64,000 bases of DNA from an uncultured Nitrospiraceae bacterium (GCA_963706325.1 CAVPLT010000004.1:480001-544000); one strand, 5' to 3'. Positions 2,257 to 59,993 are shown, numbered from the stretch's first letter. The notes: generated from the sequence alone by a model not told the origin. Translations and numbers: made by a program.

Positions 2257-3120
2257 ATGTCAGCAGAGCGCTCGGTGGTTATTACCGGAGCGTCATCGGG
2301 AATTGGCGCCGCTTGCGCGCGTTATCTCGATGAGCGTGGATTCACCGTCTGGGCGGGTGTCCGACGACCAGAAGATGGTGACGAGCTGGCGCGCCGGTGC
2401 TCAAGTCGCCTTCGTGTGCTCAGTCTGGATGTCACGAAATCGGAATCGATCTCTGCGGCCGGCCGGATGTTGACCGAAATTACGGGCGAGAGTGGATTGT
2501 GGGGCTTGATCAATAATGCCGGCATCTCAGTCGCCGGTCCGCTGGAGCTTCTGCCGCTCGATGACGTGCGATCCCAGTTCGAGGTCAATGTCATCGGGGC
2601 GCTCGCCGTCACCCAGGCCCTTCTGCCGTTGCTGCGACGAAGACGGGGTCGTATTGTCAATATCAGTTCCATTGCAGGACTCACTGCCACGCCTTTTCTC
2701 GGGGCCTATTGCAGTTCGAAGTTTGCCTTGGAAGCCATGAGCGATGCATTGCGATTGGAGCTAGTCCCTTGGGGCATCACGGTTTCCTTGGTTGAACCAG
2801 GCGCGGTTCAGTCCCAGATTTGGCAACGCGCGACGATGTCCGCGACTCACATGTTGAGGCAGGTGACACCCGCGTCGCGCGCGCTCTATGACGAACCGCT
2901 TCGTCGCATCCAGGAGGTTGTTGAGCGGGCGGCGAAGCGTGCGATTCCAGCCGCAGTGGTCGCTCGCTCCGTGGCTGATGCGTTAACCGCGCCACGTCCA
3001 CGCGCGCGGTATCTAGTCGGCAAGGATGCGCGTTTAAGGGCGTTGATGAAGTGGATGTTGCCCACTCGCGCGCAGGATCGGGTGTTGGCGTGGTTCCTGG
3101 GACTGGAGTACCGTGATTAG
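2257..3120 (+). CDS. Short-chain dehydrogenase/reductase (SDR)
   Basis: TGASSGIG, NNAG, catalytic YCSSK (YxxxK) and VEPG motifs. Confidence 0.95.
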   Translation: MSAERSVVITGASSGIGAACARYLDERGFTVWAGVRRPEDGDELARRCSSRLRVLSLDVTKSESISAAGRMLTEITGESGLWGLINNAGISVAGPLELLPLDDVRSQFEVNVIGALAVTQALLPLLRRRRGRIVNISSIAGLTATPFLGAYCSSKFALEAMSDALRLELVPWGITVSLVEPGAVQSQIWQRATMSATHMLRQVTPASRALYDEPLRRIQEVVERAAKRAIPAAVVARSVADALTAPRPRARYLVGKDARLRALMKWMLPTRAQDRVLAWFLGLEYRD

Positions 3121-44200: not shown

Positions 44201-45538
44201 TCATGTTGCGGAGGATCGGAAGACCTGAATAGTTTTCCATCGCTCGGACCGATAGCGCCATAGCATCAGCCCCATGCGCACTGTCCAGTCTACGATCATT
44301 GCCAGCCAGACATATAAGACACCCATCGTCAGCCAGTACCCGAGGATAAAGGCAATCGGGATACGCACGCCCCACATGCCGATCATCGTAGCGATCATGA
44401 TGAAACGGGTGTCACCTGCGCCTCGGAGTGAACCGGCCAACACCATCGTCAAGGCCAACGGCACTTGCAGCAAGGCCACGATTTTGAGAAACACGGTGCC
44501 CAGCTCGATGACGGCTTCATCGTTGGTGAAGGCGCGGAGCAGGACGTAAGGAAAAAAGAAGAAGACGACACCCATTGCCGACATGATATAGGTGGCCAAC
44601 CGGTTCGCTTCCCAGTTTTCGAGTTTGGCCCGAGTATATTTTCCCGCGCCGATACTTTGACCCACCATGGTGGCTGCTGCGATGGCGAAGCCATAACCGG
44701 GCAGGAACGAGAGCGATTCAATCGATAAGCCGACTTGATGGGCCGCGTAGGATACGGTGCCGTAGACCAGGACGATTTTGGTGTAGAGCAGAATTCCGGC
44801 CTGTTGCACGATTCGCTCCCCTGAGACAGGAGCCCCCACCTTCCAGATGGCGCGAATCAGGTCGAGTCGAATCCGTTTCGAAGGTCGGAGAATCGGCCGG
44901 CAACGAGCAAGCAAAAAGAGCGACCCTGCCGCCTCGGCGACCCCCACAGCCACCGCGGCCCCCTTCACGCCGAATGCCGGCAATCCCCATTGGCCATAAA
45001 TCAGCGGATAGGCGATGGCGATGTGAAGGATATTCACCATAATCATGGCGTACATCGGAGTCTTCGTGTCGCCGGTTCCCTGGAGAATTGAGGAGAGGAC
45101 TGCGAGCAGGACCGTGAAGGGAATGACAAAAAAGATCAGGGTGGAATAGGGCAGCGCGAGCGCAATGACCTCCGGCTGCGCGCCAAGCAACACCATAATC
45201 AGTCTGTTCGCCGAGAGGCCGAGTATGGCCAGCGCGAGGGAGACCAATACGGAGAGCCCCAAAAAGTGCCGAGCAGCCTGGCCTGCCTCCGCGTAACGGC
45301 GAGCACCCCACTGTTGCGCGATGATCACGTTGGTGCCCACCGAGAGCCCAGAGACCAATGTCGTGGCGATGAAGGCGAGTAACTGACCCAATCCGACGGC
45401 GGCAATGGGAATCACGCCCAACCCTCCCACGAGAAAGACTGCGACGATGCCTTCCGTCCGCTGCAGCAAGCTGCTGACGGTGACGGGGAGCGCCAGGGTC
45501 ATGACTGATCGTCTGATTTGTGCGACGCCGTTTGCCAT
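44201..45538 (-). CDS. MATE family efflux transporter
   Basis: About 12 hydrophobic segments; LALPV, G.GDTKTPM, RGAGDTR and VGQSIGAG. Confidence 0.93.
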   Translation of the reverse strand: MANGVAQIRRSVMTLALPVTVSSLLQRTEGIVAVFLVGGLGVIPIAAVGLGQLLAFIATTLVSGLSVGTNVIIAQQWGARRYAEAGQAARHFLGLSVLVSLALAILGLSANRLIMVLLGAQPEVIALALPYSTLIFFVIPFTVLLAVLSSILQGTGDTKTPMYAMIMVNILHIAIAYPLIYGQWGLPAFGVKGAAVAVGVAEAAGSLFLLARCRPILRPSKRIRLDLIRAIWKVGAPVSGERIVQQAGILLYTKIVLVYGTVSYAAHQVGLSIESLSFLPGYGFAIAAATMVGQSIGAGKYTRAKLENWEANRLATYIMSAMGVVFFFFPYVLLRAFTNDEAVIELGTVFLKIVALLQVPLALTMVLAGSLRGAGDTRFIMIATMIGMWGVRIPIAFILGYWLTMGVLYVWLAMIVDWTVRMGLMLWRYRSERWKTIQVFRSSAT

Positions 45539-45640
45539 GGGGAGCCATCCTACCAGAACTCAGCCGCAGTCGCGGACGTCCTGTTGCGCAGCCGTGGAGC
45601 TGGACAATCGGATCACTCCTTCTGTAGCCTGCAATATCTT

Positions 45641-47146
45641 ATGGAGATATGGCCTGAATCTGACGCTCGTTCCTCCTATCGGCTGTCCAAATCGAAATAC
45701 CTGTCCGGACTGCAGTGCCACAAGCGTCTGTACCTGGAAATCCATGCCCCGGCGTTGGCGACGAAGCCGGATGCCGCCACGCAGGCAATTCTCAACATGG
45801 GTACCGATATCGGTGAATTGGCTCGCGAACGGTTTCCTGGCGGCCGTCTCGTCAAGGCCGGGTACCGTCAGTCTCAAGAGGCGCTGGATCAGACAGCAGA
45901 GCTGCTTCAGGATCCAACCCTGCCGGCCATATTCGAGGGAGCGTTTCAATATAACCAGGTCCTGGTTCGTGTCGATGTGCTGGAACGGGTCGGGGTGAAC
46001 GAATTGGGACAACCGACCTGGCGCTTGGTGGAAGTGAAATCCTCGACCAAGTTGAAGGCCACGCACCTGGATGATCTCACCATTCAAAGTTATGTTCTGG
46101 AAGGGGTCGGCTTGGCGCTCGTGGATATCTGTCTGATGCATGTGAATACGCAGTATGTCTTCGATGGGAAGCAGCTCGATCTCGGGCAGTTATTTAGTCT
46201 CCGCCCATTGAACGAGATGGTGCGTCCACGATTGCCGGAAGTCCCTGCGCGTCTGGCCGCCATGCACACGATGTTGGCGGAGATGTCTGCGCCGGCCCTT
46301 GTTCCGGATGAGCATTGCCAAAGTCCCTACGAATGTCCATTTTGGGCTCATTGCACGCAGGACAAGCCGCCTCGGTGGATCTATTACCTTCCGGGAAGCA
46401 GCAAGACGGTGACCCTTCTCCGCGAGCTTGGCGTCGAGACCATCGATGACATTCCAGACCATGCGACGTTGACGCCGGTGCAGCGCCGGGTGAAGGACAA
46501 TCGAGAATGGATCGGCGAAGGGTTGAGGACTGCGTTAGCGAAAGTCCGATATCCCGTACATCATCTGGATTTTGAGACCTTCATGCCGGCGGTGCCGAAA
46601 TTTAGTGCGACCAGGCCCTATCAGGTGATCCCGACGCAGTGGTCGAATCATATCGAACAGATCGATGGAACCCTGCGCCATGCAGAGTATCTCTGCCTCG
46701 ATGGACGTGATCCACGCGAAGAGCTGACGGTGAGACTGTTGGAGTCCCTGGGGCAGGAGGGGAGTATCTGTGTGTATTCCAGTTACGAGCGCTCGATTCT
46801 AGAACGGCTCGCCGAAGACTTCCCTTCACTCAAGCAGGACATCAAGGCTGTCATCGCAAGACTGTGGGATCTTCACCTGGTCATCAGGGATCACTATTAC
46901 CATCCGGCATTCGACGGCAGCTACTCGATCAAGGCCGTCCTGCCGGCAGTGGTGCCGTCGTTAAGTTATGGGGATCTGGTCATTGGCGACGGCGGCGTGG
47001 CAGCCTGCGAATACGCTCGTATGATTTTCACCGTCAGTGACTGGATCGAAAAGGCAGAGATTGAAGAAGCCTTACTGCGGTATTGCGAGCGGGATACGCT
47101 GGCGATGGTCGAGCTGCGGAGGGAGTTGAAGAAAAGAGCCGGTTAA
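45641..47146 (+). CDS. DUF2779-like protein (Cas4/RecB-like nuclease + RNase H-like/DEDD domain)
   Basis: LSKSKY..GLQC.KRL, RVDVL...EVKSS, CxxPxxCPFxxxC, LDFET, SYSIKAVLP and YCERDT. Confidence 0.82.
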   Translation: MEIWPESDARSSYRLSKSKYLSGLQCHKRLYLEIHAPALATKPDAATQAILNMGTDIGELARERFPGGRLVKAGYRQSQEALDQTAELLQDPTLPAIFEGAFQYNQVLVRVDVLERVGVNELGQPTWRLVEVKSSTKLKATHLDDLTIQSYVLEGVGLALVDICLMHVNTQYVFDGKQLDLGQLFSLRPLNEMVRPRLPEVPARLAAMHTMLAEMSAPALVPDEHCQSPYECPFWAHCTQDKPPRWIYYLPGSSKTVTLLRELGVETIDDIPDHATLTPVQRRVKDNREWIGEGLRTALAKVRYPVHHLDFETFMPAVPKFSATRPYQVIPTQWSNHIEQIDGTLRHAEYLCLDGRDPREELTVRLLESLGQEGSICVYSSYERSILERLAEDFPSLKQDIKAVIARLWDLHLVIRDHYYHPAFDGSYSIKAVLPAVVPSLSYGDLVIGDGGVAACEYARMIFTVSDWIEKAEIEEALLRYCERDTLAMVELRRELKKRAG

Positions 47147-47631: not shown

Positions 47632-47721
<90 letters not shown>

Positions 47722-47905
47722 GCACTAGGGCCCGGCAAGAGGTGCAGCTTAACGTGGTCGATGGCAGGATTCAAATGAAATCATGTGCTTGGATGGGGGA
47801 TTTCTTCCTCCCTTTCGGGTATCGCGCAAGTGAACAAAAGGTGATTCCGTTTTGTAACATACGCATTCCGCCGTAAACTCACCTCGAGACAGGCCACGGT
47901 CGTTT

Positions 47906-50900
47906 GTGTGGCCATCACTTAAGTCATCGACACATCGCCTCTGCGTGCCTCTCGGTCCCACTGGGGTTGAGCATTTTGTGGTCAGACATCCACCGGTAAC
48001 CGTTCCATCCGGCGACACACTACTCGATGTGCTGAAATGGCGGGCTGAGCATGAGCCCGACCAGACGGCTTACGTCTTCCTGCGGGACGGGGTCACCCCT
48101 GACGCCGTCCTGACTTACAAAGAGCTGGACCTCAAAGCTCGCTCCATAGCCGGGTATCTACAGACCCGATTTGCGCCGGGCACATGCCTGCTCCTGGTTT
48201 ATCCTCCCGGTCTTGATTTCGTGCAAGCGTTCTGGGGCGCGCTGTACGCCGGCATGGTCGCCGTACCGGTGCCACCGCCGGACGCCTTTCGATTAAAGCA
48301 GAGTACCGCGAGGCTGCAGCGCATTACCGAGGATGCGCGTCCAGCCGGGGCGTTAAGTACGAGCCAGATCCGTACCATGCTTCATCAACAGGATTTCCCT
48401 GAGCATTTTATCCAACGAGAACGTTGGATAAGTCTCGATGAGGCCGGTTCAGACCTTTCCGAGCATGGGACATTTACAGCGTCCACTTCCGCGACATTGG
48501 CTTATCTGCAATATACTTCCGGTTCCACATCCGCACCCAAGGGCGTCATGGTCAGCCATGGGAATATGACGGCGCAGAGTCGTTGTATTACTGAGGCCGG
48601 CGGCTACGACGGTCAATCCGTCACTCTATCCTGGATGCCGCATTTTCATGACTACGGATTGGTGAAGGGAATCATTCAGCCCGCCTGGATCGGCCGTCCC
48701 GCTTATCTCATGTCTCCGCTCACGTTTCTAAAACGCCCCTTGCGGTGGCTCGAAGCCATTCATCGCTACCGGGTCACTCACAGCGGCGGTCCCAACTTTG
48801 CGTACCGGCACTGCATCGAAGCCATTCCGGTGGAGGATCGCGCGAAGGTGGATCTATCGGGTTGGGAAGTAGCGAGTTGTGGGGCAGAACCCATTGCTTC
48901 CAATACCATTGACCGATTCGCCGAGGCCTTCGCTCCGGCGGGATTCCGGCGCGAAGCATTTTCTCCCGCCTATGGAATGGCAGAATTTACCTTGCTGATT
49001 TCCCTTAAGCGACAGGGCCTGCTACCGACGGTGCAGGCGCTCGACCCGGCTGCGCTGGAACAGGGCGTGGTCTCTGGTGCTAAGCCGGAGGCCGAGCCGG
49101 TCCGGCAGGTCGTCGGGTGCGGAACTCCCGTCGGAGACACCAAGGTAATCATCGCCCATCCCGAGACCCTGTCTCATTGTGCGGCTCAGCAGATCGGCGA
49201 AATTTGGCTGGCCGGGGCCAGCACGGCGCAAGGATATTGGAACAATCCGGAAGAAACTGCGCGCACGTTTGGCGCCAGGCTTCGCGATACTGGGGAGGGG
49301 CCGTTTCTGAGAACTGGTGACCTTGGGTTCGTGAAGGACGGCGAGGTTTTCGTCACCGGGCGGTTGAAAGACCTCCTCATCGTTCGAGGCCGAAATCACT
49401 ATCCTCACGATATCGAACGGACGGTGGAACAGTGCCACGCGTTATTCCGTGTAAGTGGAGCGGCGGCGTTTTCCGTCCAGGAAGCCGGTGAAGAAGCCGT
49501 CGTCGTCGTCCAAGAGGTGGAACGTCAGTCTGCCGCTCTGGCCATCGACGAACTGGCTGCCGCCATTCGCGCGGCGGTGTCGGAGCACCATGACCTCCAT
49601 GTATTCACCATTGTGTTCATCAAGGCGGGCACGCTTCCAAAGACTTCCAGCGGCAAAGTACAACGGCGGGCCTGTCGAGACCAATTTACCAAGGGCGAGC
49701 TTTCGATCATCGGTCAAAGTCTCCTTCAATCGCCGCAGCATCTCGTTTCCTCAACAATGGTCAAGACAGAATCTCTCCGCCTGCTCTCACCCGATGCACG
49801 ACGGCGGCAGGTTGAGCAGTATCTGTGCGTGATGATCGCCGATCGAGTGGGGTGTCTGCCGGATGCCATACACTGCGGCCGACCGGTACAGCTCCTGGGA
49901 CTGGATTCGCTTATGGCGGCGGAGGTGTTGCATGCGGTGGAGGAAACATTCAGGGTCTCGCTCCCGTTACAGACCCTGTTGGGAGGAGCCAGCGTTGCAG
50001 ATCTCGCCGCGACGATCGAGGACGAGATCCTTCACCCAGTCATTGAGGTGACGACTGACCTGCAGCCGGATTCGACCCAGGAGCATCGTGGCTTGCTCTC
50101 CGAGAACCAAGCAGCCCTATGGTTCCTCAGCCAATTGGCGCCGGACAGCGCCGCTGCGAATGTCTCGGTCTTGCTGCATTTCTCAGAGGACGTCAATGCA
50201 AGCCTGTTGAAACAGGGGCTGGAACAACTCGGCGAACAACACGCCACGCTTCGCACCACCTATGAGACGCAGCAAGGCGTTCCCGTCCAACGAATCCACG
50301 AATGTTTGCCTCTTGGCTGGACGATCATCGATGGCTCCACATGGGACTGGGCGCATCTTCGTCAGATGGCGCTCGAGGCCGCAGCTATCCCATTCGATCT
50401 CCAGCATGGGCCCCTATGGAGAGCATCTCTTTATCAACGCCAGGATGATACCTGGTTGCTACTGGTCGCCCACCATATTGCGGTGGACGGTTGGTCGATG
50501 ATGCAGTTGGTAAAAGATCTCAAGCGGCATTATGAGTCGGTGCAGACGGGATCCACCTCTATGCCCGATGGAAGCGGCACTAGACCGGTTCCGTACAGTG
50601 ACTTCGTCACATGGCATCGCTCGCTCTTGGACAGCGTCGAGGGCCAACGTCTGAGGCGCTACTGGAAAGAAAGGTTGGCCGGCGAATTGCCGACCTACGA
50701 CATATTGTATGACCGGCCGCAGACGACCGTCGAGCCGAGCCGGTATGCCTGGCACCCGTTCCATATCGAGGCGGCTTTGGCGGAACGACTCAAGACCTTC
50801 GCCCAGGCTGAAGGTACGACGCTGTATGCCGTCTGTCTGGCTGCGCTCCAGGTCTTGATGTACCGCTACACGAATCAGGAAGACACGGCCATTGTGACTC

Positions 50901-53900
50901 CCGTGTTCGGTCGCAGCCGATCCCGGTTCGCTGGGGCAGTGGGTGACTTCGTCAATATTCTGGTACTGCGGGAGCGCCTTCAGGCGGAGATGACCGGTCG
51001 CGACCTCCTGGCTCAGACGAAGCACGGCCTCCTGGAGGCGCTCGCCCATCAGGATTATCCCTACTCTCGCCTCCTGTCGGACTTGCGACCGTCGCGCGAC
51101 CGTCAACGCGCGCCGTTGGCACAGGTCCTCTTCGTGCTGCAACCATTCAAATTGTTTGCCGAGCTGGATGCATACATGGGCGCATCGTCCTCGTCCTTTC
51201 CGGGCATTAGCCGGCCCGGATGGGAGCCTTACGTCATACCGCAGCAGAGCGGACAGTTTGATCTCTGTATCGAACTTGCGGAATCGGAGCGAGGATTGAG
51301 CGGCTACTTCGAATACAAGGACCAATTGTTTGATCCGGACAGAGTGGCACAGATGCAGGAGCATTTTGTGCGATTACTGCAGGGCTTTGTGAGTGATCCC
51401 GCGGCGCACATCGGCGAGTTGCCCCTCCTGTCTGAGGCTGAGCGACGGGACAGAGTGCTTGCAGGGGATCACCCTCGCGAGCCCGCGAGCGCCTTGTCCT
51501 GTCTCCATCATCAGATCGAAGCGCAGGCTCAGCGAACACCGGACGCGATTGCGGTGCAGCAAGCAGGGCAGACGCTGACCTATCGTGAACTTGATGAGAG
51601 GGCGAATCGGCTGGCCCATTATCTCCGTCGGCGGGGAGTCACTCCTGGGGTCGTCGTCGGGCTCTGTCTCGAACGGTCGCTCAATTTAATGGTCGGCCTG
51701 CTTGGCATTTTGAAATCGGGCGGAGCCTACCTGCCGTTGGACGCCGACTATCCCACCGACCGTTTGGAATATATGCTGCGGGACAGCCAGGTCCGCGTTC
51801 TGGTCACTCAACAGGATCAACTGGCACGTCTGCCGGCGACCAACCCGCATACCATTTGCCTCGACTCCGAATGGGACCAGATTGCGCGTTGTTCGGACAG
51901 CGTCATCGAGGGCGCAGATGCCTTAGACAATCTGGCCTATGTGATCTATACATCCGGGTCCACCGGGCATCCCAAAGGGGTGATGGTCGAACATCGGTCG
52001 ATTGCCAACTATGTGTGCGCAATCGCCGATCTTGTCGAGTTGAAGGCCGCTGACCGGGTACTGCAATTTGCTTCGTTGAGTTTTGATACGGCCGCGGAAG
52101 AAATCTTTCCTTGCCTGGCGACAGGGGCGACGTTGCTCTTGCGCACGTCCAACATGGTCGACTCTGTCTCTGGATTTCTCGACCGCTGTCGTGAATGGAA
52201 GGTGACTATTTTGGACTTGCCGACGGCTTACTGGCACGAGGTCGTGACTCGAATGGAATTGGAGCAGATCGCGTTTCCGCAATCCATACGGACGGTGATC
52301 ATCGGCGGGGAGCGTGTGCTTCCCCAGATCGTGCAACGCTGGGCCAAGTTAACCGGTCGCGCGGTGCGCTTGTTGAACACCTACGGCCCGACTGAAACGA
52401 CGGTGGCCGCCACCTGGGCAGATCTCACCGGCTTCGGCGTCGACGACGAGCTACAAGCCGACTTGCCGATCGGACGGGTGATACGCGGGGCAAGCGCCTA
52501 TGTGTTGGATCCGCAGCGGCAACTGGTTCCACTCGGTGTGGCAGGGGAACTCTATGTCGGCGGGGTGGGAGTCGCGCGCGGGTATCGAGGGCGTCCAGAG
52601 TTGACCGAGGCCAAGTTTATCCCTGACCCGTTTTCAAGTCTGGAGGGGGCACGTCTGTACCGAACCGGTGATATTGTCCGCTGGCGGCCTGACGGGCAAC
52701 TGGACTACCGAGGGCGTGCGGATCGTCAGGTCAAAATCCGAGGATATCGTATCGAATTGGAGGAAATCGAAGCCGTTCTGAACCGGCACCCGGATCTGGA
52801 ACGCGCCGTGGTCGAAGTGCGCGAGGATCAACCGGGAGATAAACGGATCGTGGCGTTCATCGTGCCACGTCCTCAGAACCGGCTGAGCTTGGCGCAATTG
52901 CGCGAACAACTGCGCAGCCAGCTGCCGGCCCACATGCTTCCCTCATCGTTCATCGAACTCGAAGCTCTGCCACTCACGGCCAATGGCAAGGTAGATCGGC
53001 AGGCGCTCCGTGTGGCCGGAGACAGTCGCGCCAGCAAGGTCGATTTGAGCTCAGAGTTTGTTGCCCCGCGCAATTCCACGGAGCAGATGTTGGCCGATAT
53101 CTGGGGCGAAATCCTGCATCTGAAAGACGTCGGCATACACGATAACTTTTTCGAACTGGGTGGGCATTCTCTGCTCGCCACGCAACTGGTATCGCGAGTC
53201 CAGGCTCTGTTTCAGACCGTGCTGCCTCTACGCCAGGTCTTCGAGAAGCCGACGATTGCCACCTTGGCAGCGGCGATCAAGTGGACGCAAGAAGGTGGTG
53301 ATCAAGCTCAAGGGCACGAGGGCCTGGTTATCACGAAGGCCGGACGAGGGGCGCCCTTGCCTCTGTCGTTTGCCCAGGAGCGGATGTGGTTTCTGTATCG
53401 ATTGTCCCCCGGGGCCGCCGCGTACAACATTCCCGCCAGTGTTCGCTTGCACGGTCCGCTCGATAAGGCGGCGTTGCGTTGGAGCGTCGAGGAACTTGTT
53501 CGCCGCCACGAGGCGCTGCGGACCACCTTCACGCAACGGGATGGCCAGGCGCGTCAGATCATCCACACATCCTTGGAGCCGCAGTGGATTGAAGAAGACG
53601 CGCGAAAATTACCGCTGGAGATACGCGAGCCACGGGCGCTGGAATTGGCTACGGCCGAAGCCCGCCGTCCATTCGATCTCGAACAGGGTCCGTTGCTTCG
53701 GATTTTGCTGATCCAGCTGGGGGAAGAAGACCATGTATTGGTGATGAGCACTCACCACATCATTTCCGATCAATGGTCGTATGGTGTGATCGCGCGTGAG
53801 CTGGTGAAGTGCTACAACGCCTTCTGTGCCGGCAAACCTTTTGCGATCCAGCCAGAGCTCCCGATCCAATATGCCGACTTCGCGCTGTGGCAACGCACTT

Positions 53901-56900
53901 GGCTGACTGGGCCGGTATTGGCAGAACAACTGACCCATTGGAAGTCAAAACTGCTGGATCTTCCGGTGCTGACGTTGCCGACCGACCGACCGCGGTTACC
54001 TGTCCATTCCTTCAAAGGGGATCATGTGTCGATGGATGTGCCCTGGGCCTTGGTCAACCGGCTCAAGCAGCTCAGCGTCCGCGAAGGAGTAACGCTGTAC
54101 ATGGTATTCCTGGCCGGATTCTTCGGCCTGTTGCATCGTCTCACGCAACAGCGCGACCTGGTCATCGGCACACCCATCGCGAATCGCAATCGTCTCGAAA
54201 TCGAAGATTTGATCGGCACGTTTGTGAATACGCTCGTGTTGCGGACAGACGTGACAAGCGAGCTGACCTTCCGCGAATTACTGGGGAAGGTCCGCGAACT
54301 GTCTCTCGATGCCTATGCCCATCAAGACATTCCCTTCGAGAAGCTGGTGGAAGAACTGCGTGCGGACCGCAGCCAAGGCGGCTTGCCGCTGGTGCAGGTG
54401 CTTTTCAATTTCGCCAATACGCCCTTCGCGCGCACGGAGTTTCAGCATCTCTCGTGGACGCCGTATGAAGTGAGCCGGGGCGCGGCCCAGCTGGATCTCG
54501 GGCTGTCGATCGATCCGTTCTCGTCACGAAAAGCTTATTTGGAGTTCAATACGGATCTCTTCGATCGCGCGACCGCCGAGCGGTGGCTGGGGCAGTACCG
54601 GGAACTGATGGAAGCGATTGCGGAGCATCCCGAGGAAAAGATCGGACGTGTGGCGATCCTTACGGAACAGGAGCAGCGCCGAATCATTCGAGAGTGGAAC
54701 GCGACGGAGACGATCTTCGACCGTACCGTCTGCTTTCCGCAGCTGTTCGAAGCGCAAGTCTCACGAACTCCCGACGCCATCGCCGTGGTTTATGAAGGGG
54801 TGGAACTCTCATATGCGGAACTAAATCGTCGCGCGAACAGGATGGCTCACCACTTGCGGGATTGGGGCGTGGGGCCGGATATCGTCGTGCCGGTCTTACT
54901 GGAACGGTCGCTTGAATTGCTCATCACGTTACTGGCCGTGATGAAAGCCGGCGGCGCCTATCTTCCCTTGGTGCCTGGGCTGCCGATACGGAGACTGGCT
55001 GTCATGATCGAGGCCAGCCAGGCGGCGCTTCTCGTGACCCATTCCTCGCTCCTCGCGGAGCTTCCTCAGCATCAACTGCCGGTGATCTGCATGGATCTTA
55101 ATGCGGAGACATTGGCGCAATATCCGGATGAAAACCCGCCGCCCCAAGCCGACCCTCAGCATCTGGTGTATGTACTGTTTACGTCGGGTTCGACCGGTCA
55201 GCCGAAGGCGGTCGAAATCGAACATCGCGCACTGGTCAACTTTTTGCGATCGATGCAGCGCGAGCCGGGTATGGCCGCGTCCGATGTCCTGGTTGCCCTC
55301 ACGCCGTTGTCGTTCGATATCGCCGGACTGGAACTGTATCTTCCACTCCTGACCGGCGCGCGCATTGTATTGGCCAATCGTCGACAGGCGATGGACGGAG
55401 TCTGGTTACAGCGAGAACTCGACCAGGGTCGGGTTACCGTCATGCAGGCCACGCCGGCGACGTGGCGAATGGTGTTGCAATCGGGGTGGCAGGGCGGACG
55501 CCAGGTGAAGGTGCTCTGTGGCGGAGAGTCACTTTCACGCGAGTTGGCGCAGGAGCTGTTGTCGAGGGCAGGGTCTGTCTGGAACGTGTATGGACCGACA
55601 GAGACGACCGTCTGGTCGACTCTCGAGCGCGTCCGGTCGGCAGACCGGACCGTTCCGATCGGAAGGCCCATCGCGAATACCCAGGTGTACGTGCTGGATC
55701 CCAATGGTGAGCCGGTGCCGGTGGGGATACCGGGTGAACTCTATATCGGCGGAATGGGCGTCGCTCGAGGATACCGGCATGCTCCCCAGTTGACGGATGA
55801 GCGATTCAACCCTAATCCGTTTCGATCTGGGGAGCGCCTGTATCGCACAGGCGACCAGGTCAAATGGTTGCCTGACGGCAGGCTGGAATATGTGGGACGT
55901 ATGGACTTCCAGGTGAAGCTGCGAGGGTTTCGGATTGAGCTGGGTGAAATCGAGGCCGTTCTGGCAGAAGATCTCACCGTCAAGCAAGCGGTGGTCATCG
56001 TGCGGGAAGATGTTCCGGGGGACAAGCGGCTGGTGGGCTATGTGGTGGCGCGAGAGGGACAGCGTTGTGACCCTCAGGCCCTGCGCCGCGCCCTTCGAGA
56101 CGTGGTTCCGGACTACATGGTTCCAGCTGCGATCGTGCCTCTTCCGGAGTTTCCACTCACCCCCAACGGCAAAATCGATCGAAAGGCCTTACCGATTCCG
56201 GCGGTGGAACCCATTCACGATGGCGCGCAGGCCATCGAGCCGAGGAATCGAATCGAATTGCAGCTAGCGGCGATTTGGGAGCAGGTGTTGGGGATCACGC
56301 CGATCGGCGTTCAAGACAATTTTTTTTCGCTGGGCGGGTATTCCTTGCTGGCGCTACGGATGTTCAGCGCCATCGAGCAGACTTTCGGCACACGTTTGCC
56401 GATGGCCTTGCTCTTTCAGGCACCGACGATCGAACAACTGGCGGATGTCCTGGCCGATGAAGGTTGTACCGTGCGCTGGCGGTCGTTGGTGGCGATTCAA
56501 CCGGAAGGCAAGAATCCGCCATTCTTCGCGGTTCCCGGCGTCGGCGGGAATGTCCTCGTCTTCGCTCGCTTAGCCAAGTTGCTCGGCAACGATCAGCCGT
56601 TTTATGGCTTACAGGCTCGTGGCCTCGATGGAAAAGAAAAGCCATTCATGCGCGTGGAGGACATGGCCGCGCATTACATTGACGAAATTCGTTCGGTCCA
56701 GCCGCAGGGCCCCTATCTCATCGGAGGGACTTGTACGGGTGGGCTGGCGGCATACGAAATCGCCCAGCAGTTGACGGCAAAGGGGGAAGAGGTGGTGCTG
56801 GCCATCATCGAATCCTGGCATCCACGGTCTTACGTAATCCACTGGAATCGGCCGCCCTATTTGCTGTGGCCATTACTATTCGTGGCCATGAAGGTGGCGA

Positions 56901-57349
56901 CGTACTATCGTCTTATGCGCAAACTACCGCGCCAGGAATGGCTGATGTTCTGGAGAGGAAAGTTGAAACGACTCTGGGGTCTCATGCACCATTCTGAAGC
57001 CGCCGAACATCAAGATGAATTTTTATACAAAGACCAAGTCACCTATGCCACCTTTCACGCGGTCGCGCGCTACGACTTGAAGCCGTTTCGAGGGCAGGTG
57101 CTCAATGTGATTGCTTCTAAACATCCGCTCACCAATTCCACCGACGACACGCGATTGGTCTTCGGCGAATCCGCAAGAGGAATGAGCCGAACGATGTACT
57201 TGCCTGCGGAAGATTCCGGCCGCCTTTTCGTCGCCCCGCATGTGCAGGAATTGGCCGTCCAGCTCAAGACATTTTGGCAGGACGCCTGGGCGCAGCTCCA
57301 GCGAAAGCCGGATGATGAGGGAAAGGGGCCGTCATCGAGAGCGGCCTAA
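47906..57349 (+). CDS. Lipopeptide NRPS: FAAL-ACP-C-A-PCP-C-A-PCP-TE
   Basis: FAAL (LQYTSGST, WMPHFHDYGL, GRNHYP.DIE, PKTSSGK); ACP GLDSL; C domains HHIAVDG and HHIISDQ; A domains YTSGSTG and FTSGSTG with YGPTE; PCPs GGHS and GGYS; TE GGTCTGG. The true start may be GTG 47978. Confidence 0.95.
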   Translation: MWPSLKSSTHRLCVPLGPTGVEHFVVRHPPVTVPSGDTLLDVLKWRAEHEPDQTAYVFLRDGVTPDAVLTYKELDLKARSIAGYLQTRFAPGTCLLLVYPPGLDFVQAFWGALYAGMVAVPVPPPDAFRLKQSTARLQRITEDARPAGALSTSQIRTMLHQQDFPEHFIQRERWISLDEAGSDLSEHGTFTASTSATLAYLQYTSGSTSAPKGVMVSHGNMTAQSRCITEAGGYDGQSVTLSWMPHFHDYGLVKGIIQPAWIGRPAYLMSPLTFLKRPLRWLEAIHRYRVTHSGGPNFAYRHCIEAIPVEDRAKVDLSGWEVASCGAEPIASNTIDRFAEAFAPAGFRREAFSPAYGMAEFTLLISLKRQGLLPTVQALDPAALEQGVVSGAKPEAEPVRQVVGCGTPVGDTKVIIAHPETLSHCAAQQIGEIWLAGASTAQGYWNNPEETARTFGARLRDTGEGPFLRTGDLGFVKDGEVFVTGRLKDLLIVRGRNHYPHDIERTVEQCHALFRVSGAAAFSVQEAGEEAVVVVQEVERQSAALAIDELAAAIRAAVSEHHDLHVFTIVFIKAGTLPKTSSGKVQRRACRDQFTKGELSIIGQSLLQSPQHLVSSTMVKTESLRLLSPDARRRQVEQYLCVMIADRVGCLPDAIHCGRPVQLLGLDSLMAAEVLHAVEETFRVSLPLQTLLGGASVADLAATIEDEILHPVIEVTTDLQPDSTQEHRGLLSENQAALWFLSQLAPDSAAANVSVLLHFSEDVNASLLKQGLEQLGEQHATLRTTYETQQGVPVQRIHECLPLGWTIIDGSTWDWAHLRQMALEAAAIPFDLQHGPLWRASLYQRQDDTWLLLVAHHIAVDGWSMMQLVKDLKRHYESVQTGSTSMPDGSGTRPVPYSDFVTWHRSLLDSVEGQRLRRYWKERLAGELPTYDILYDRPQTTVEPSRYAWHPFHIEAALAERLKTFAQAEGTTLYAVCLAALQVLMYRYTNQEDTAIVTPVFGRSRSRFAGAVGDFVNILVLRERLQAEMTGRDLLAQTKHGLLEALAHQDYPYSRLLSDLRPSRDRQRAPLAQVLFVLQPFKLFAELDAYMGASSSSFPGISRPGWEPYVIPQQSGQFDLCIELAESERGLSGYFEYKDQLFDPDRVAQMQEHFVRLLQGFVSDPAAHIGELPLLSEAERRDRVLAGDHPREPASALSCLHHQIEAQAQRTPDAIAVQQAGQTLTYRELDERANRLAHYLRRRGVTPGVVVGLCLERSLNLMVGLLGILKSGGAYLPLDADYPTDRLEYMLRDSQVRVLVTQQDQLARLPATNPHTICLDSEWDQIARCSDSVIEGADALDNLAYVIYTSGSTGHPKGVMVEHRSIANYVCAIADLVELKAADRVLQFASLSFDTAAEEIFPCLATGATLLLRTSNMVDSVSGFLDRCREWKVTILDLPTAYWHEVVTRMELEQIAFPQSIRTVIIGGERVLPQIVQRWAKLTGRAVRLLNTYGPTETTVAATWADLTGFGVDDELQADLPIGRVIRGASAYVLDPQRQLVPLGVAGELYVGGVGVARGYRGRPELTEAKFIPDPFSSLEGARLYRTGDIVRWRPDGQLDYRGRADRQVKIRGYRIELEEIEAVLNRHPDLERAVVEVREDQPGDKRIVAFIVPRPQNRLSLAQLREQLRSQLPAHMLPSSFIELEALPLTANGKVDRQALRVAGDSRASKVDLSSEFVAPRNSTEQMLADIWGEILHLKDVGIHDNFFELGGHSLLATQLVSRVQALFQTVLPLRQVFEKPTIATLAAAIKWTQEGGDQAQGHEGLVITKAGRGAPLPLSFAQERMWFLYRLSPGAAAYNIPASVRLHGPLDKAALRWSVEELVRRHEALRTTFTQRDGQARQIIHTSLEPQWIEEDARKLPLEIREPRALELATAEARRPFDLEQGPLLRILLIQLGEEDHVLVMSTHHIISDQWSYGVIARELVKCYNAFCAGKPFAIQPELPIQYADFALWQRTWLTGPVLAEQLTHWKSKLLDLPVLTLPTDRPRLPVHSFKGDHVSMDVPWALVNRLKQLSVREGVTLYMVFLAGFFGLLHRLTQQRDLVIGTPIANRNRLEIEDLIGTFVNTLVLRTDVTSELTFRELLGKVRELSLDAYAHQDIPFEKLVEELRADRSQGGLPLVQVLFNFANTPFARTEFQHLSWTPYEVSRGAAQLDLGLSIDPFSSRKAYLEFNTDLFDRATAERWLGQYRELMEAIAEHPEEKIGRVAILTEQEQRRIIREWNATETIFDRTVCFPQLFEAQVSRTPDAIAVVYEGVELSYAELNRRANRMAHHLRDWGVGPDIVVPVLLERSLELLITLLAVMKAGGAYLPLVPGLPIRRLAVMIEASQAALLVTHSSLLAELPQHQLPVICMDLNAETLAQYPDENPPPQADPQHLVYVLFTSGSTGQPKAVEIEHRALVNFLRSMQREPGMAASDVLVALTPLSFDIAGLELYLPLLTGARIVLANRRQAMDGVWLQRELDQGRVTVMQATPATWRMVLQSGWQGGRQVKVLCGGESLSRELAQELLSRAGSVWNVYGPTETTVWSTLERVRSADRTVPIGRPIANTQVYVLDPNGEPVPVGIPGELYIGGMGVARGYRHAPQLTDERFNPNPFRSGERLYRTGDQVKWLPDGRLEYVGRMDFQVKLRGFRIELGEIEAVLAEDLTVKQAVVIVREDVPGDKRLVGYVVAREGQRCDPQALRRALRDVVPDYMVPAAIVPLPEFPLTPNGKIDRKALPIPAVEPIHDGAQAIEPRNRIELQLAAIWEQVLGITPIGVQDNFFSLGGYSLLALRMFSAIEQTFGTRLPMALLFQAPTIEQLADVLADEGCTVRWRSLVAIQPEGKNPPFFAVPGVGGNVLVFARLAKLLGNDQPFYGLQARGLDGKEKPFMRVEDMAAHYIDEIRSVQPQGPYLIGGTCTGGLAAYEIAQQLTAKGEEVVLAIIESWHPRSYVIHWNRPPYLLWPLLFVAMKVATYYRLMRKLPRQEWLMFWRGKLKRLWGLMHHSEAAEHQDEFLYKDQVTYATFHAVARYDLKPFRGQVLNVIASKHPLTNSTDDTRLVFGESARGMSRTMYLPAEDSGRLFVAPHVQELAVQLKTFWQDAWAQLQRKPDDEGKGPSSRAA

Positions 57350-57350
57350 C

Positions 57351-57466
57351 GAGATGCTGACGCAGGCCGTCAGCCTGGTTCTCGCCGCGCGCCGTGGCTC
57401 ACTGGAATAAGCACGCCTCACCCCTTTGGTTGCTGCGGCCGCGCTCATTGACCATTGGATCATCCG
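57351..57466. repeat. Degenerate copy of the ~120 bp inverted-repeat element between the NRPS and the exporter
   Basis: GAGATGCTGA...CAGCCTGGTTCTCGC...GCTGCGGCC.CGCT...GATCATCC is collinear with the 39450 copy. Confidence 0.65.
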
Positions 57467-57487
57467 AGACATGACGGAATCAGGACC

Positions 57488-59185
57488 ATGATAAAAATGT
57501 ATCGGTTCCTCCTGTTTCTCTTGCGGGGCGCCAGAAACATGATGGTGCTGATGGTGCTGACCGGGCTTCTGGCCGGTCTCTCCAGTGTGGGACTGCTCGC
57601 GGTCATCAACAAGCTGATCAATGGCGCCGGCTCGGCCTCGGACGTATTCGCGGTAGCGTTCATAGGGCTGGCCATACTGAAAGTGGTCTCAAACTACCTG
57701 TCCCAGTTGCTGCTCGTCACATTTGCGCAGGAAACCATTTTGAATCTGGGCATGGAGCTCTGCTGGAAAGTGGTGCGCGCCCCCTATCGCACATTGGAGA
57801 AACGCGGAGCGCATGAAATTCTAACGACACTGACGGATGACACGAATGCGATGGCCTGGGCGGTGAACGGCTTACCGGGCTTAGCTATTAATGTGGCTAT
57901 TCTGGCCGGGTGCTCGGTCTATCTCGCCTGGCTTTCCTGGCAGGCCTTTCTGGGCGTGATGATCTTAGCGGTGCTGGGGTTGCTGGGGTATCGCCATCTC
58001 TACAATCGAGTCCTGCAGTCGTCTCTCGCCGTGCGCGAGTCCAAAGGCGCGCTCTTCGAGCACTTTCGTAGCCTGACCGAGGGGATGAAGGAGCTGATGC
58101 TGCATCGAGGAAGGCGCGAAACCTTCGTCGCCACGGACATCAAGCATGCCGCCGAGTCGCTCCGTCATCACAACCTCGTGGCGACCAAGCAGTATCTCGC
58201 GACTGACTCATGGACGCAGGTGCTTTTCTACGGGTTGATCGGTGTGATTCTCCTTCTGTTTCCAAAAATTTTGGCGCTGTCAGGTGAGTCGTTAACCGGT
58301 TATGCATTCGCCATGCTGTACATGATCGGGCCCATGTGGGGCTTGCTGGGGATGGTGCCGGCATTGAGTCGAGGACAGGTGGCGCTGGAGAAGATCGAAG
58401 GGCTGGGGTTGGCGTTGGACGAGGGAAAGCGCGAGGGTGGCGCGGAGCGTCCGGTAGCCCAGGGTCCGCAATGCGTGGAGTTTTCCAACGCCAGTTTTTC
58501 CTATGAATCAAAGGGTGAGGGTGAGCGTTCGTTCACGCTCGGACCCTTGGATATGACCTTGGCAACCGGCGAGCTGGTCTTTATCATCGGCGGCAATGGC
58601 AGCGGCAAGTCGACATTTGTGAAGGTGCTTACGGGGCTCTATCTTCCACAGCAGGGAGCCGTGAAGCTCAACGGCGAAACCATTGCGCCTACGACCCAGG
58701 ATTGGTACCGGCAGCATTTTGCGGCGGTTTTTTCGGACTTTTATTTATTCAAGAAACTGTTGGGACTGGATCCTTCGCTGATCGCCAGCCAGGCCGACGG
58801 ATGGTTGAAGACCCTGCAAATCGAGCATAAGGTGAGCATCCAGGACGAGGAATATTCCACCATCAATCTGTCCCAGGGACAGCGCAAGCGGTTGGCGCTG
58901 GTCACGGCGATGCTTGAGGATCGGCCTTTTTATGTGTTCGATGAATGGGCCGCCGACCAGGATCCTCAATACAAGGACGTGTTTTACGGCGAGCTGCTTC
59001 CGGAACTGCAGGCCAGGGGAAAGGGTGTGATTGTCGTGACTCACGACGATCGGTATTTCCATGTGGGCGACCGCGTGTTAAAACTGGATGAAGGCAAGCT
59101 TGTGGATGCTTCCAACGGGATCATCCGGGGTGCCATGCACAGACCCGGCCCGATGCTCAAACCGGTTGCGCGCCCGTCGGCGTGA
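57488..59185 (+). CDS. Cyclic peptide export ABC transporter (PvdE/SyrD/YojI family)
   Basis: N-terminal TM domain; GMKEL.L, F.LGPLD, GGNGSGKST, LSQGQRKRLAL, FDEWAADQDP and THDD.YF. Confidence 0.95.
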   Translation: MIKMYRFLLFLLRGARNMMVLMVLTGLLAGLSSVGLLAVINKLINGAGSASDVFAVAFIGLAILKVVSNYLSQLLLVTFAQETILNLGMELCWKVVRAPYRTLEKRGAHEILTTLTDDTNAMAWAVNGLPGLAINVAILAGCSVYLAWLSWQAFLGVMILAVLGLLGYRHLYNRVLQSSLAVRESKGALFEHFRSLTEGMKELMLHRGRRETFVATDIKHAAESLRHHNLVATKQYLATDSWTQVLFYGLIGVILLLFPKILALSGESLTGYAFAMLYMIGPMWGLLGMVPALSRGQVALEKIEGLGLALDEGKREGGAERPVAQGPQCVEFSNASFSYESKGEGERSFTLGPLDMTLATGELVFIIGGNGSGKSTFVKVLTGLYLPQQGAVKLNGETIAPTTQDWYRQHFAAVFSDFYLFKKLLGLDPSLIASQADGWLKTLQIEHKVSIQDEEYSTINLSQGQRKRLALVTAMLEDRPFYVFDEWAADQDPQYKDVFYGELLPELQARGKGVIVVTHDDRYFHVGDRVLKLDEGKLVDASNGIIRGAMHRPGPMLKPVARPSA

Positions 59186-59225
59186 AGACATCTTCGTTCG
59201 TCATGCGTATTGTGTTGTAGCCGCT

Positions 59226-59993
59226 GTGCTGATTCCCTACACCACGTCAATCCCATCTTCAGATCTCTCTGGGCAGGCGCATGTCTGGTTCTGCGACCTG
59301 TCCCGACATGAGCCTGACCGTGCGGCCCTCGCGGCGCTGCTGTCGACGGAGGAGCAGACTCGCGCCGCTCGGTTCGTCTTCGAGCTGGATCGACAGCGGT
59401 TCCTGCTGTCACATGGGCTCCTGCGGCTGATTCTGGCCCGCTATGTAGGGGACGCGGCCGGGCAGCTTGAGTTTGAAACGGAAGCTCATGGCAAGCCGGT
59501 ATTACTCAGGCGGTCTCGTACCGGACAGCCGATTGAGTTCAGCCTATCCCACTCAGGCCAATATGCCCTGGTGGCGGTGGCGAATGGGCGAGCGGTCGGC
59601 GTGGATATAGAAGTCTGCCGCCCTGATGTGGAAGCGCTCCGGCTAGCCCAGCGATTCTTTGCTCCGGGCGAATCACAGCGGATTGCGCAAGCGCATGGGG
59701 AGGAGCAGCCGCGCATGTTCTATCGTTATTGGACCGGCAAGGAAGCCTATCTCAAAGGGCAAGGAGTGGGACTGTCTTTCGGGTTGGAACGGTTCGAATT
59801 GCTGTTCGATAATCAGGTGATGCAGGCGGAGGTACGTCTGACGGATTCGGGCCTTCTCGACGCTGATTGGTCGGTGCATACTCTACAACTGGGCGAGCAC
59901 CTCGCCGGGGCGATCGCGCTCGAAGGCGAAGGCTGGAAGATGCAATTGTTCGATGCGTCGACGTTAATTGTTACGCGTTCTCCCGCCGTATAG
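59226..59993 (+). CDS. Sfp-type 4'-phosphopantetheinyl transferase
   Basis: LS.EE..RA.RF, HGKP, FSLSHSG, VGVDIE and W..KEAYLK..G.GL. The start is uncertain; the ORF track gives 59088. Confidence 0.92.
   Translation: MLIPYTTSIPSSDLSGQAHVWFCDLSRHEPDRAALAALLSTEEQTRAARFVFELDRQRFLLSHGLLRLILARYVGDAAGQLEFETEAHGKPVLLRRSRTGQPIEFSLSHSGQYALVAVANGRAVGVDIEVCRPDVEALRLAQRFFAPGESQRIAQAHGEEQPRMFYRYWTGKEAYLKGQGVGLSFGLERFELLFDNQVMQAEVRLTDSGLLDADWSVHTLQLGEHLAGAIALEGEGWKMQLFDASTLIVTRSPAV

Follow-up and report, generated by a model that had tools for sequence, protein, structure and literature searches.

The stretch of DNA analysed here, a window of 64,000 nucleotides from an uncultured Nitrospiraceae bacterium (GCA_963706325.1, CAVPLT010000004.1:480001-544000), carries between positions 47,906 and 59,993 a unit of three genes encoding a nonribosomal peptide synthetase (NRPS), an ABC exporter and a phosphopantetheinyl transferase (PPTase) (Table 1). 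Residues are numbered throughout from 47906, where a stop-free frame of 3147 aa, running to 57349, opens; the likely NRPS start is the GTG at 47978, 3' of a conserved ribosome-binding site (RBS), which gives a protein of 3123 aa, as in the closest homologs, and the likely starts of the exporter and the PPTase were judged from homolog lengths. Pfam delineates three AMP-binding, two Condensation, three PP-binding and one Thioesterase stretch in the NRPS. Its N-terminal domain is a fatty acyl-AMP ligase (FAAL) by the NCBIfam FAAL models, and the top PDB matches are FAALs (7R7E, E 1.6e-146; 3KXW; FadD23/32). The serines of all three carrier domains, the HH motif of both condensation (C) domains and the A3, A5, A7, A8 and A10 motifs are in place, with C2 reading HHxxxDQ where HHxxxDG is expected. 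Having a FAAL and an acyl carrier protein (ACP) before condensation-adenylation-thiolation (C-A-T) modules, intact motifs and a PPTase, the system has the architecture of the FAAL-initiated lipopeptide NRPSs; the best NCBIfam model is NF004282 (2408/4090 bits, below cut-off). The exporter passes TIGR01194 with 463 bits against a cut-off of 286, and the PPTase is of the Sfp/HetI type, with ACPS and AASDHPPT_N domains (NF042922, E 5e-51, though below that model's cut-off). The initial annotation of this DNA had described a single FAAL-ACP-C-A-PCP-C-A-PCP-TE reading frame (PCP, peptidyl carrier protein; TE, thioesterase), followed by its own exporter and PPTase and free of tailoring or epimerase genes. 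Pfam, NCBIfam and the motif positions agree with the first of these statements and the domain assignments of the two smaller genes with the second, at the same positions, while ORF and Pfam annotation found no epimerase or tailoring ORF within or adjoining the unit.

Table 1. Features of the NRPS unit and its upstream region (positions counted from the first nucleotide of the window)
Feature	Position	Strand	Remarks
FAAL-ACP-C1-A1-T1-C2-A2-T2-TE NRPS	47978..57349	+	3123 aa from likely start
FAAL	47993..49720	+	NCBIfam FAAL models and PDB matches
ACP	49793..50035	+	attachment Ser668 (LGLDSL); Pfam and motif reading
C1	50078..51415	+	motif HHIAVDG; predicted to acylate Lys
A1	51488..53020	+	code DTEDIGTVAK; predicted L-Lys
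T1	53063..53290	+	Ser1755; motif reading
C2	53333..54700	+	LCL-like; variant motif HHIISDQW fixed among family members
A2	54728..56200	+	code DILQLGVVWK; predicted Gly
T2	56243..56461	+	Ser2813; motif reading
TE	56498..57295	+	nucleophile Cys2943 (GTCTG) at 56732-56734; Ser3104 at 57215-57217
PvdE/SyrD/YojI-type cyclic-peptide ABC exporter	57488..59185	+	565 aa; ORF opens 57455
Sfp/HetI-type PPTase	~59226..59993	+	~255 aa; ORF opens 59088
Promoter-like pair TTGTAA-N16-TAAACT	47852..47879	+	5' of NRPS; inferred
9-pair hairpin overlapping NRPS RBS	47951..47971	+	called terminator-like

The cluster had also been called self-contained, and within the tests run this holds. In the bacterium's own genome (4.2 Mb, 96% complete) the window NRPS is the sole multi-module NRPS, and the PPTase is the single match of its kind, with no paralog match. 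Neither an MbtH protein nor a PvdQ-type acylase was found in this 96%-complete genome, in searches whose controls matched in 2/14 and 4/14, respectively; amoA gave no match in it either, with a control that matched nowhere. The only other FAAL in the genome, at L113:8707-10190 (G000:C2:52706-54189), is fragmented across several frames and adjoins ORFs that by eye resemble an ECF sigma factor, FecR, a TonB-dependent receptor and a PepSY protein; this locus is probably the relic of a siderophore NRPS cluster kept by some same-genus genomes.

Named homologs of the NRPS come from Nitrospira and Nitrospiraceae, in line with the nitrifier lineage first suggested, and from the ortholog of Ca. Nitrospira defluvii (FP929003.1, locus L036; 3120 aa, identical A1 code, TE 88% identical) the window would lie in or beside Nitrospira lineage I. 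A search with T2-TE matched 24 of 24 same-genus genomes against 0 of 16 from other families. Over 250 genomes drawn from the family, the TE search matched 109, with 37/38 in the own genus (the exception being 66% complete), 6/6 in genus g13, 31/50 in g15, 20/49 in g24, 10/33 in g7 and none in 30 of the 39 family genera; kin are not independent, hence these are given as counts rather than as a test. The exporter search matched 105 of the same 250 genomes at E 1e-120, a few via a paralog only. At the loci of 20 TE-positive genomes, which were selected across genera, the exporter lies 3' of the NRPS in 17 by the ORF filter (18 with the exporter search), the PPTase in 19, and an anti-sigma gene downstream in 17. 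The site is conserved, with MATE, DUF2779 and tRNA-Ser genes on one side and tadA, anti-sigma and ECF sigma genes on the other, and the GC content of the unit (0.58-0.59) is similar to that of its flanks. The locus is old and chromosomal, fixed within its own genus and patchy elsewhere; flank-like GC and the conserved site rule out an orphan or recently acquired cluster, and the one-off cluster implied at first gives way to a vertically kept, lineage-wide one with a swappable first module.

The A-domain code positions were placed by motif, in what we take to be the GrsA numbering, and both codes in Table 1 read as they had been read before. The A1 code is identical at eight of ten positions, and different at two, to the ScoA code DTEDVGTVVK, which was assayed as activating L-Lys, not Orn (10.1101/121228). 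Homolog P0053 carries the ScoA code letter for letter and other relatives have DTEDVGTVAK. The basic residue (Lys, Orn or Arg) originally proposed for A1 can be narrowed, through the ScoA code, to what is probably Lys. The best single-domain PDB match of A1 is ApnA A1, whose specificity we take to be Arg/Tyr, and given that match Arg is also a conceivable substrate. For A2 the best single-A match is 5U89 (DhbF), presumably a Gly-activating domain, and AB3403 matched as well. DILQLGMIWK is listed as a Gly code (PMC12283262), and the Gly first assigned to A2 is supported by both code and PDB neighbours. Many relatives share this listed code with MtaG/MelG-type Gly-MOX systems (PMC12283262); amidation of that kind was considered and rejected, as A2 aligns gap-free over ~490 aa, so that there is no monooxygenase insertion.

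The release domain conforms only in part to the canonical type I NRPS TE. It has the fold, an alpha/beta hydrolase in the AlphaFold model (pLDDT 84.5), and the G-x-(S/C)-x-G elbow, here G-T-C-T-G with Cys2943, and it lacks the post-beta8 His: Ser3104, in the loop past strand beta8, falls in the column where ordinary TEs carry His (GDH, GNH or GAH rows). Glu2969 occupies acid position I and is followed by WHP (His2972), D3081-T-R is conserved, and the lid (2978-3030; 53 residues with ten K/R, one D/E and ten aromatics) is cationic and aromatic. At the place of the catalytic His, 129 family TEs show Ser 118 times, Ala 9 times, Thr twice and His never; D-T-R (3081-83) is present in 129 of them, His2972 in 128 and D or E at acid position I in 126. 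Since the Cys motif had served as the filter for these sequences, the invariance of Cys among them is by construction; in 29 TE rows picked by genome search the nucleophile is likewise Cys in all 29. Asp3081 as a proven position-II acid was rejected, for DTR is also found in ordinary Ser/His TEs (P0259). Foldseek placed the TE model closest to AB3403 (4ZXH; E 5.5e-15, 23% identity), the ESM Atlas returned generic thioesterase clusters only, and alignments from PDB sequence searches span just the N-terminal half of the domain.

Searching 1.84 billion cluster representatives with a profile extended this picture: the best 150 proteins (clusters at 50% identity) yielded 203 TE stretches, and after 69 partial ones were dropped the 134 full-length TEs comprised 92 with Cys and no near-slot His, 21 with Cys and His, 18 with Ser and His and 3 others. 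Upstream of the 92 there is no A domain in 41 cases, a Gly code in 27 and another code in 24, about ten of the last being, as we presume, Val-like. The His-less type is therefore not confined to Gly modules; it also occurs in named non-Nitrospira loci (L070, L071, L076, L077, L081), often with the same exporter type, and in many His-less TEs beyond the Gly clade the counterpart of His2972 is missing, the motif there being WPP or WxP. No solved or characterised member of the group was found, nor any paper on it in literature searches from which subscription journals were mostly out of reach; TE triads are treated in PMC10510592. Compared with 11 same-genus loci, dN/dS is 0.035-0.075 for the TE, 0.060 for T2, 0.075-0.16 for the other catalytic domains and 0.29 for the ACP, with dS near saturation; the TE is thus, with T2, among the most constrained domains and therefore not decaying. 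Another His-less Cys-TE system is seen at many Acidobacteria loci (L083-L087, L095, L096, L099, L101, L102, L108, L111), where small T-TE proteins come in pairs: one partner has GYC[M/L/G]G but lacks the His (PVYPAG), and the other has GYSLG. A PPTase and an adenylation protein that stands alone are encoded nearby.

Of 1704 homologs found, 120 were listed; the 108 having the family's terminal module were used and 12 of other architecture dropped. In these 108 and in the 20 loci module 2 is constant, with HHxxxD[Q/H]W, a Gly code and GxC[T/I]G. Module 1 has DTEDIGTVAK-type, DGTVIAEVWK-type and DVTAIGEVWK-type codes as well as DVGEVGSIDK, DALFIGAVAK, DVQFIAQVVK and DAWLLGFDDK, that is, Lys-, His/Tyr-, Orn-like and others; it is absent from proteins of ~2020 aa (P0051, P0075, P0101, L066, L067) and doubled at a length of 4150 aa. 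DGTVIAEVWK agrees with the His code DSALIAEVWK at seven of ten positions and, presumably, equally well with a Tyr code. In the module-2 tree L024 and L078 cluster with g7/g15 rows at 98% support, a grouping that the A1 data reject (p-AU 8e-6; 20 rows, LG+G4 quick tree) in a test for which a FastTree A1 tree had been inspected beforehand and in which long branches meet at that very point. From this conflict it follows that module 1 has been replaced at least once. Most DGTVIAEVWK-type relatives (L016-L023, L047-L065) have HRLxxDG in C1, with Arg instead of the catalytic second His; DVTAIGEVWK-type relatives retain that His.

One of the closest known systems is the acinetin-505 operon of Acinetobacter baumannii (A1S_0112-0119, with AB3403, 4ZXH), which shares an acyl-AMP ligase, an ACP, a C-A(Gly)-T-TE with Cys, and its own PPTase and exporter. 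In that operon the proteins are separate, there is only one module, an acyl-CoA dehydrogenase is present and the exporter is of the RND type, whereas the window unit is fused, with an extra Lys module and an ABC exporter, and lacks the dehydrogenase. Surface motility and biofilm have been connected with the operon, whose product was read as the adduct of an electrophilic precursor (PMC5376624), and the triad Asp of the AB3403 TE is at position I (PMC11298585). The isonitrile lipopeptide NRPSs ScoA, MmaA and Rv0101 share FAAL-ACP initiation and, for ScoA, eight of ten letters of the Lys code, but their terminal domain is a reductase and the isonitrile depends on ScoD/ScoE (10.1101/121228); the window unit has a Gly module and a TE instead, with no reductase and no ScoD/ScoE-like ORFs in or adjoining it. 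The TEs of ObiF1 (beta-lactone) and SulM (beta-lactam) likewise have Cys at the nucleophile elbow and make small products, but use a Cys-His-Asp triad (position II) on a last residue with a beta-OH or beta-N (PMC6668435, PMC11298585); the window TE has no His, and its predicted last residue, Gly, would be incapable of such rings.

We lean towards the view that this intact, lineage-wide operon assembles an acyl-Lys-Gly that is likely released non-hydrolytically by the Cys TE and likely exported by the ABC transporter. Genes, motifs, conservation and the missing TE His are observed; the order of events would be as follows. The PPTase, judging from its family, would prime the ACP, T1 and T2; the FAAL would adenylate a fatty acid and load it onto the ACP; C1 would acylate Lys-T1 and C2 would add Gly-T2, as the codes suggest; and the chain would then be transferred onto Cys2943 as a thioester. 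Because a general-base His is missing from its usual place, this thioester probably yields to a stronger nucleophile than water, an outside amine or lipid admitted via the amphipathic lid, or to ring closure on the N-acyl-glycine, and the adjacent transporter would export the product. The release chemistry should be independent of the first-residue side chain, given that relatives differ in module 1 or do without it. A product released by aminolysis, lipid transfer or ring closure thus seems to us somewhat probable, and ObiF1 and SulM set a precedent in that their Cys TEs cyclise and their Cys-to-Ser mutants yield the hydrolysis product (PMC6668435, PMC11298585). The building blocks of the exported acyl-(Lys/Orn/Arg)-Gly put forward in the initial annotation are borne out by codes and PDB neighbours; a free linear acid becomes only one possible end product, because the TE departs from standard Ser-His-Asp hydrolases.

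Several points weigh against this view. The product is a prediction, as is each chemical step towards it, and the residue calls are code matches (8/10) rather than assays. ObiF1 lost about 80-fold activity on His-to-Ala replacement (PMC6668435, PMC11298585), so a His-less Cys TE needs compensation, which His2972 might supply, enabling plain hydrolysis; a His at another place within 3099-3108 is present in eight of the 129 family TEs. The locus is missing from many family genomes (it is matched in just 31/50 of g15, 20/49 of g24, 10/33 of g7 and in none of 30 of the 39 genera) and therefore dispensable for nitrite oxidation, and the adjacent exporter is absent in some relatives. In all six Nitrospira loci without an adjacent exporter (L023, L026, L072, L074, L075, L079), Asn replaces the acid at TE position I (NSW[H/Q]P) and the DSG motif is degraded, with L026 in a separate clade from L023/72/74/79; from this pattern, export and TE chemistry may be coupled.

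The foremost alternative, which we hold to be doubtful, is that the TE is a rewired hydrolase, in which Cys2943 works together with His2972 and either Glu2969 or Asp3081, and that zwitterionic N-acyl-Lys-Gly leaves as the free acid. It would be the simplest outcome, nearby genes encode no partner enzyme, and the near-constancy of these residues in the family speaks for it; however, the many WPP/WxP relatives outside the Gly clade manage without that His, characterised Cys TEs avoid hydrolysis (PMC6668435, PMC11298585), and the Asp of DTR, present in Ser/His TEs, may be structural. Rather improbable, and compatible with either release mode, is the acylation by C1 of both Lys amines to give a two-tailed diacyl-Lys-Gly membrane amino lipid. 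ScoA and MmaA, with FAAL-ACP initiation and a near-identical Lys code, do di-acylate Lys (10.1101/121228), and the locus is core and constitutive, but in relatives Lys gives way to residues that have no second amine, or module 1 is dropped altogether, transcription is low (see below), and no such Nitrospira amino lipid was found in the literature. The FAAL start and PvdE-type exporter, together with the best NCBIfam model, recall pyoverdine synthesis, in which PvdL shares the FAAL-ACP-C-A start and PvdE the TIGR01194 family. PvdL, which lacks a TE, opens a series of several NRPSs and supplies a chromophore precursor. A comparable precursor role, for a siderophore or another pathway completed elsewhere, is quite unlikely here: the unit has its own TE in a genome with no other multi-module NRPS, no chelating residue is predicted and no acylase was found, no Fur-consensus match lies within 3 mismatches in the window, no receptor or hydroxylase gene adjoins the unit, and the large NRPS clusters of relatives are separate, with a second exporter paralog. 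That the TE is catalytically dead, the locus decaying or living on slow solvolytic release, is hardly credible, for although the catalytic His is missing and ObiF1 H1284A behaves as C1146A (PMC6668435, PMC11298585), TE and T2 are under the strongest purifying selection, Cys is kept in the 92 His-less TEs among clusters below 50% identity, and the reading frames are open in relatives.

N. moscoviensis offers a glimpse of expression; for 50500-59900 of the window itself a look for RNA runs listed none. Its NITMOv2_2463, a 9288-bp NRPS gene with a cyclic-peptide exporter, a HetI-type PPTase and the same flanking genes (PMC6606698), is taken as the counterpart from size and gene order. Transcript levels of NRPS, exporter and PPTase are 34.9, 39.4 and 88.9 reads per kilobase per million (RPKM) against a median of 97.6, or 0.36× the median for the NRPS, and during planktonic growth on nitrite they did not change significantly over the three time points sampled (PMC6606698). 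So low a transcription of the NRPS argues against a bulk lipid, and is to be set beside the points against our preferred view.

Upstream of the NRPS, the promoter-like pair stands out as conserved columns in 14 upstream regions, the second element being TAGACT in relatives; it scores 8/12 to the sigma-70 consensus, below the threshold of the scanner, which itself called none. The hairpin over the RBS (shuffled controls 0.3±0.5) is largely kept in sequence in 12 of 14 aligned upstream regions, and a T run follows 3' of it (window 47951-47980); translational or attenuation control of the NRPS by this hairpin is possible. A tRNA-Ser(CGA) gene at 47632-47721 (-), divergent from the NRPS, is retained in relatives, and between the two the short palindrome ATGAAATCAT (47775-47784) is conserved in most of the 14 aligned regions. 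The DUF2779 protein at 45518-47146 (+), with weak RecB-like nuclease similarity, is a constant upstream neighbour across genera.

As for its role, the product probably acts at the cell surface, as a surfactant-like lipid or a signal in routine physiology, and is probably not a siderophore or an inducible antibiotic. This is the least certain part of our proposal, to which steady low expression, the lack of an iron signature and, by analogy, the AB3403 link to motility and biofilm point. That the product is not a known one, as initially stated, agrees with our literature searches, which yielded no characterised product, with most subscription journals out of reach. In PMC9765116, NRPS clusters among nitrifiers are noted only in Nitrospira, with no product named, and Nitrospira secondary metabolism is described as cluster counts only.

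The unit represents a genuine lipodipeptide pathway, so far uncharacterised, whose class is known but whose release domain has been remodelled. More tentatively, Nitrospiraceae might ancestrally export acyl-(X)-Gly lipids with a lineage-specific X, and the His-less Cys TEs might form a class of transacylases or ring-closers acting with an amine, a membrane lipid or in azlactone-type closure. If true, this would mean new off-loading chemistry and the first lineage-marking Nitrospira natural product, with X as a possible marker residue, possibly tied to aggregate growth, in organisms that dominate nitrite oxidation in treatment plants and soils. The pathway is short, transcribed and near-universal, with a predictable product in the cultured Ca. 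N. defluvii, and so directly testable; its TE would be an entry to a large enzyme group whose products lie beyond prediction by standard rules.

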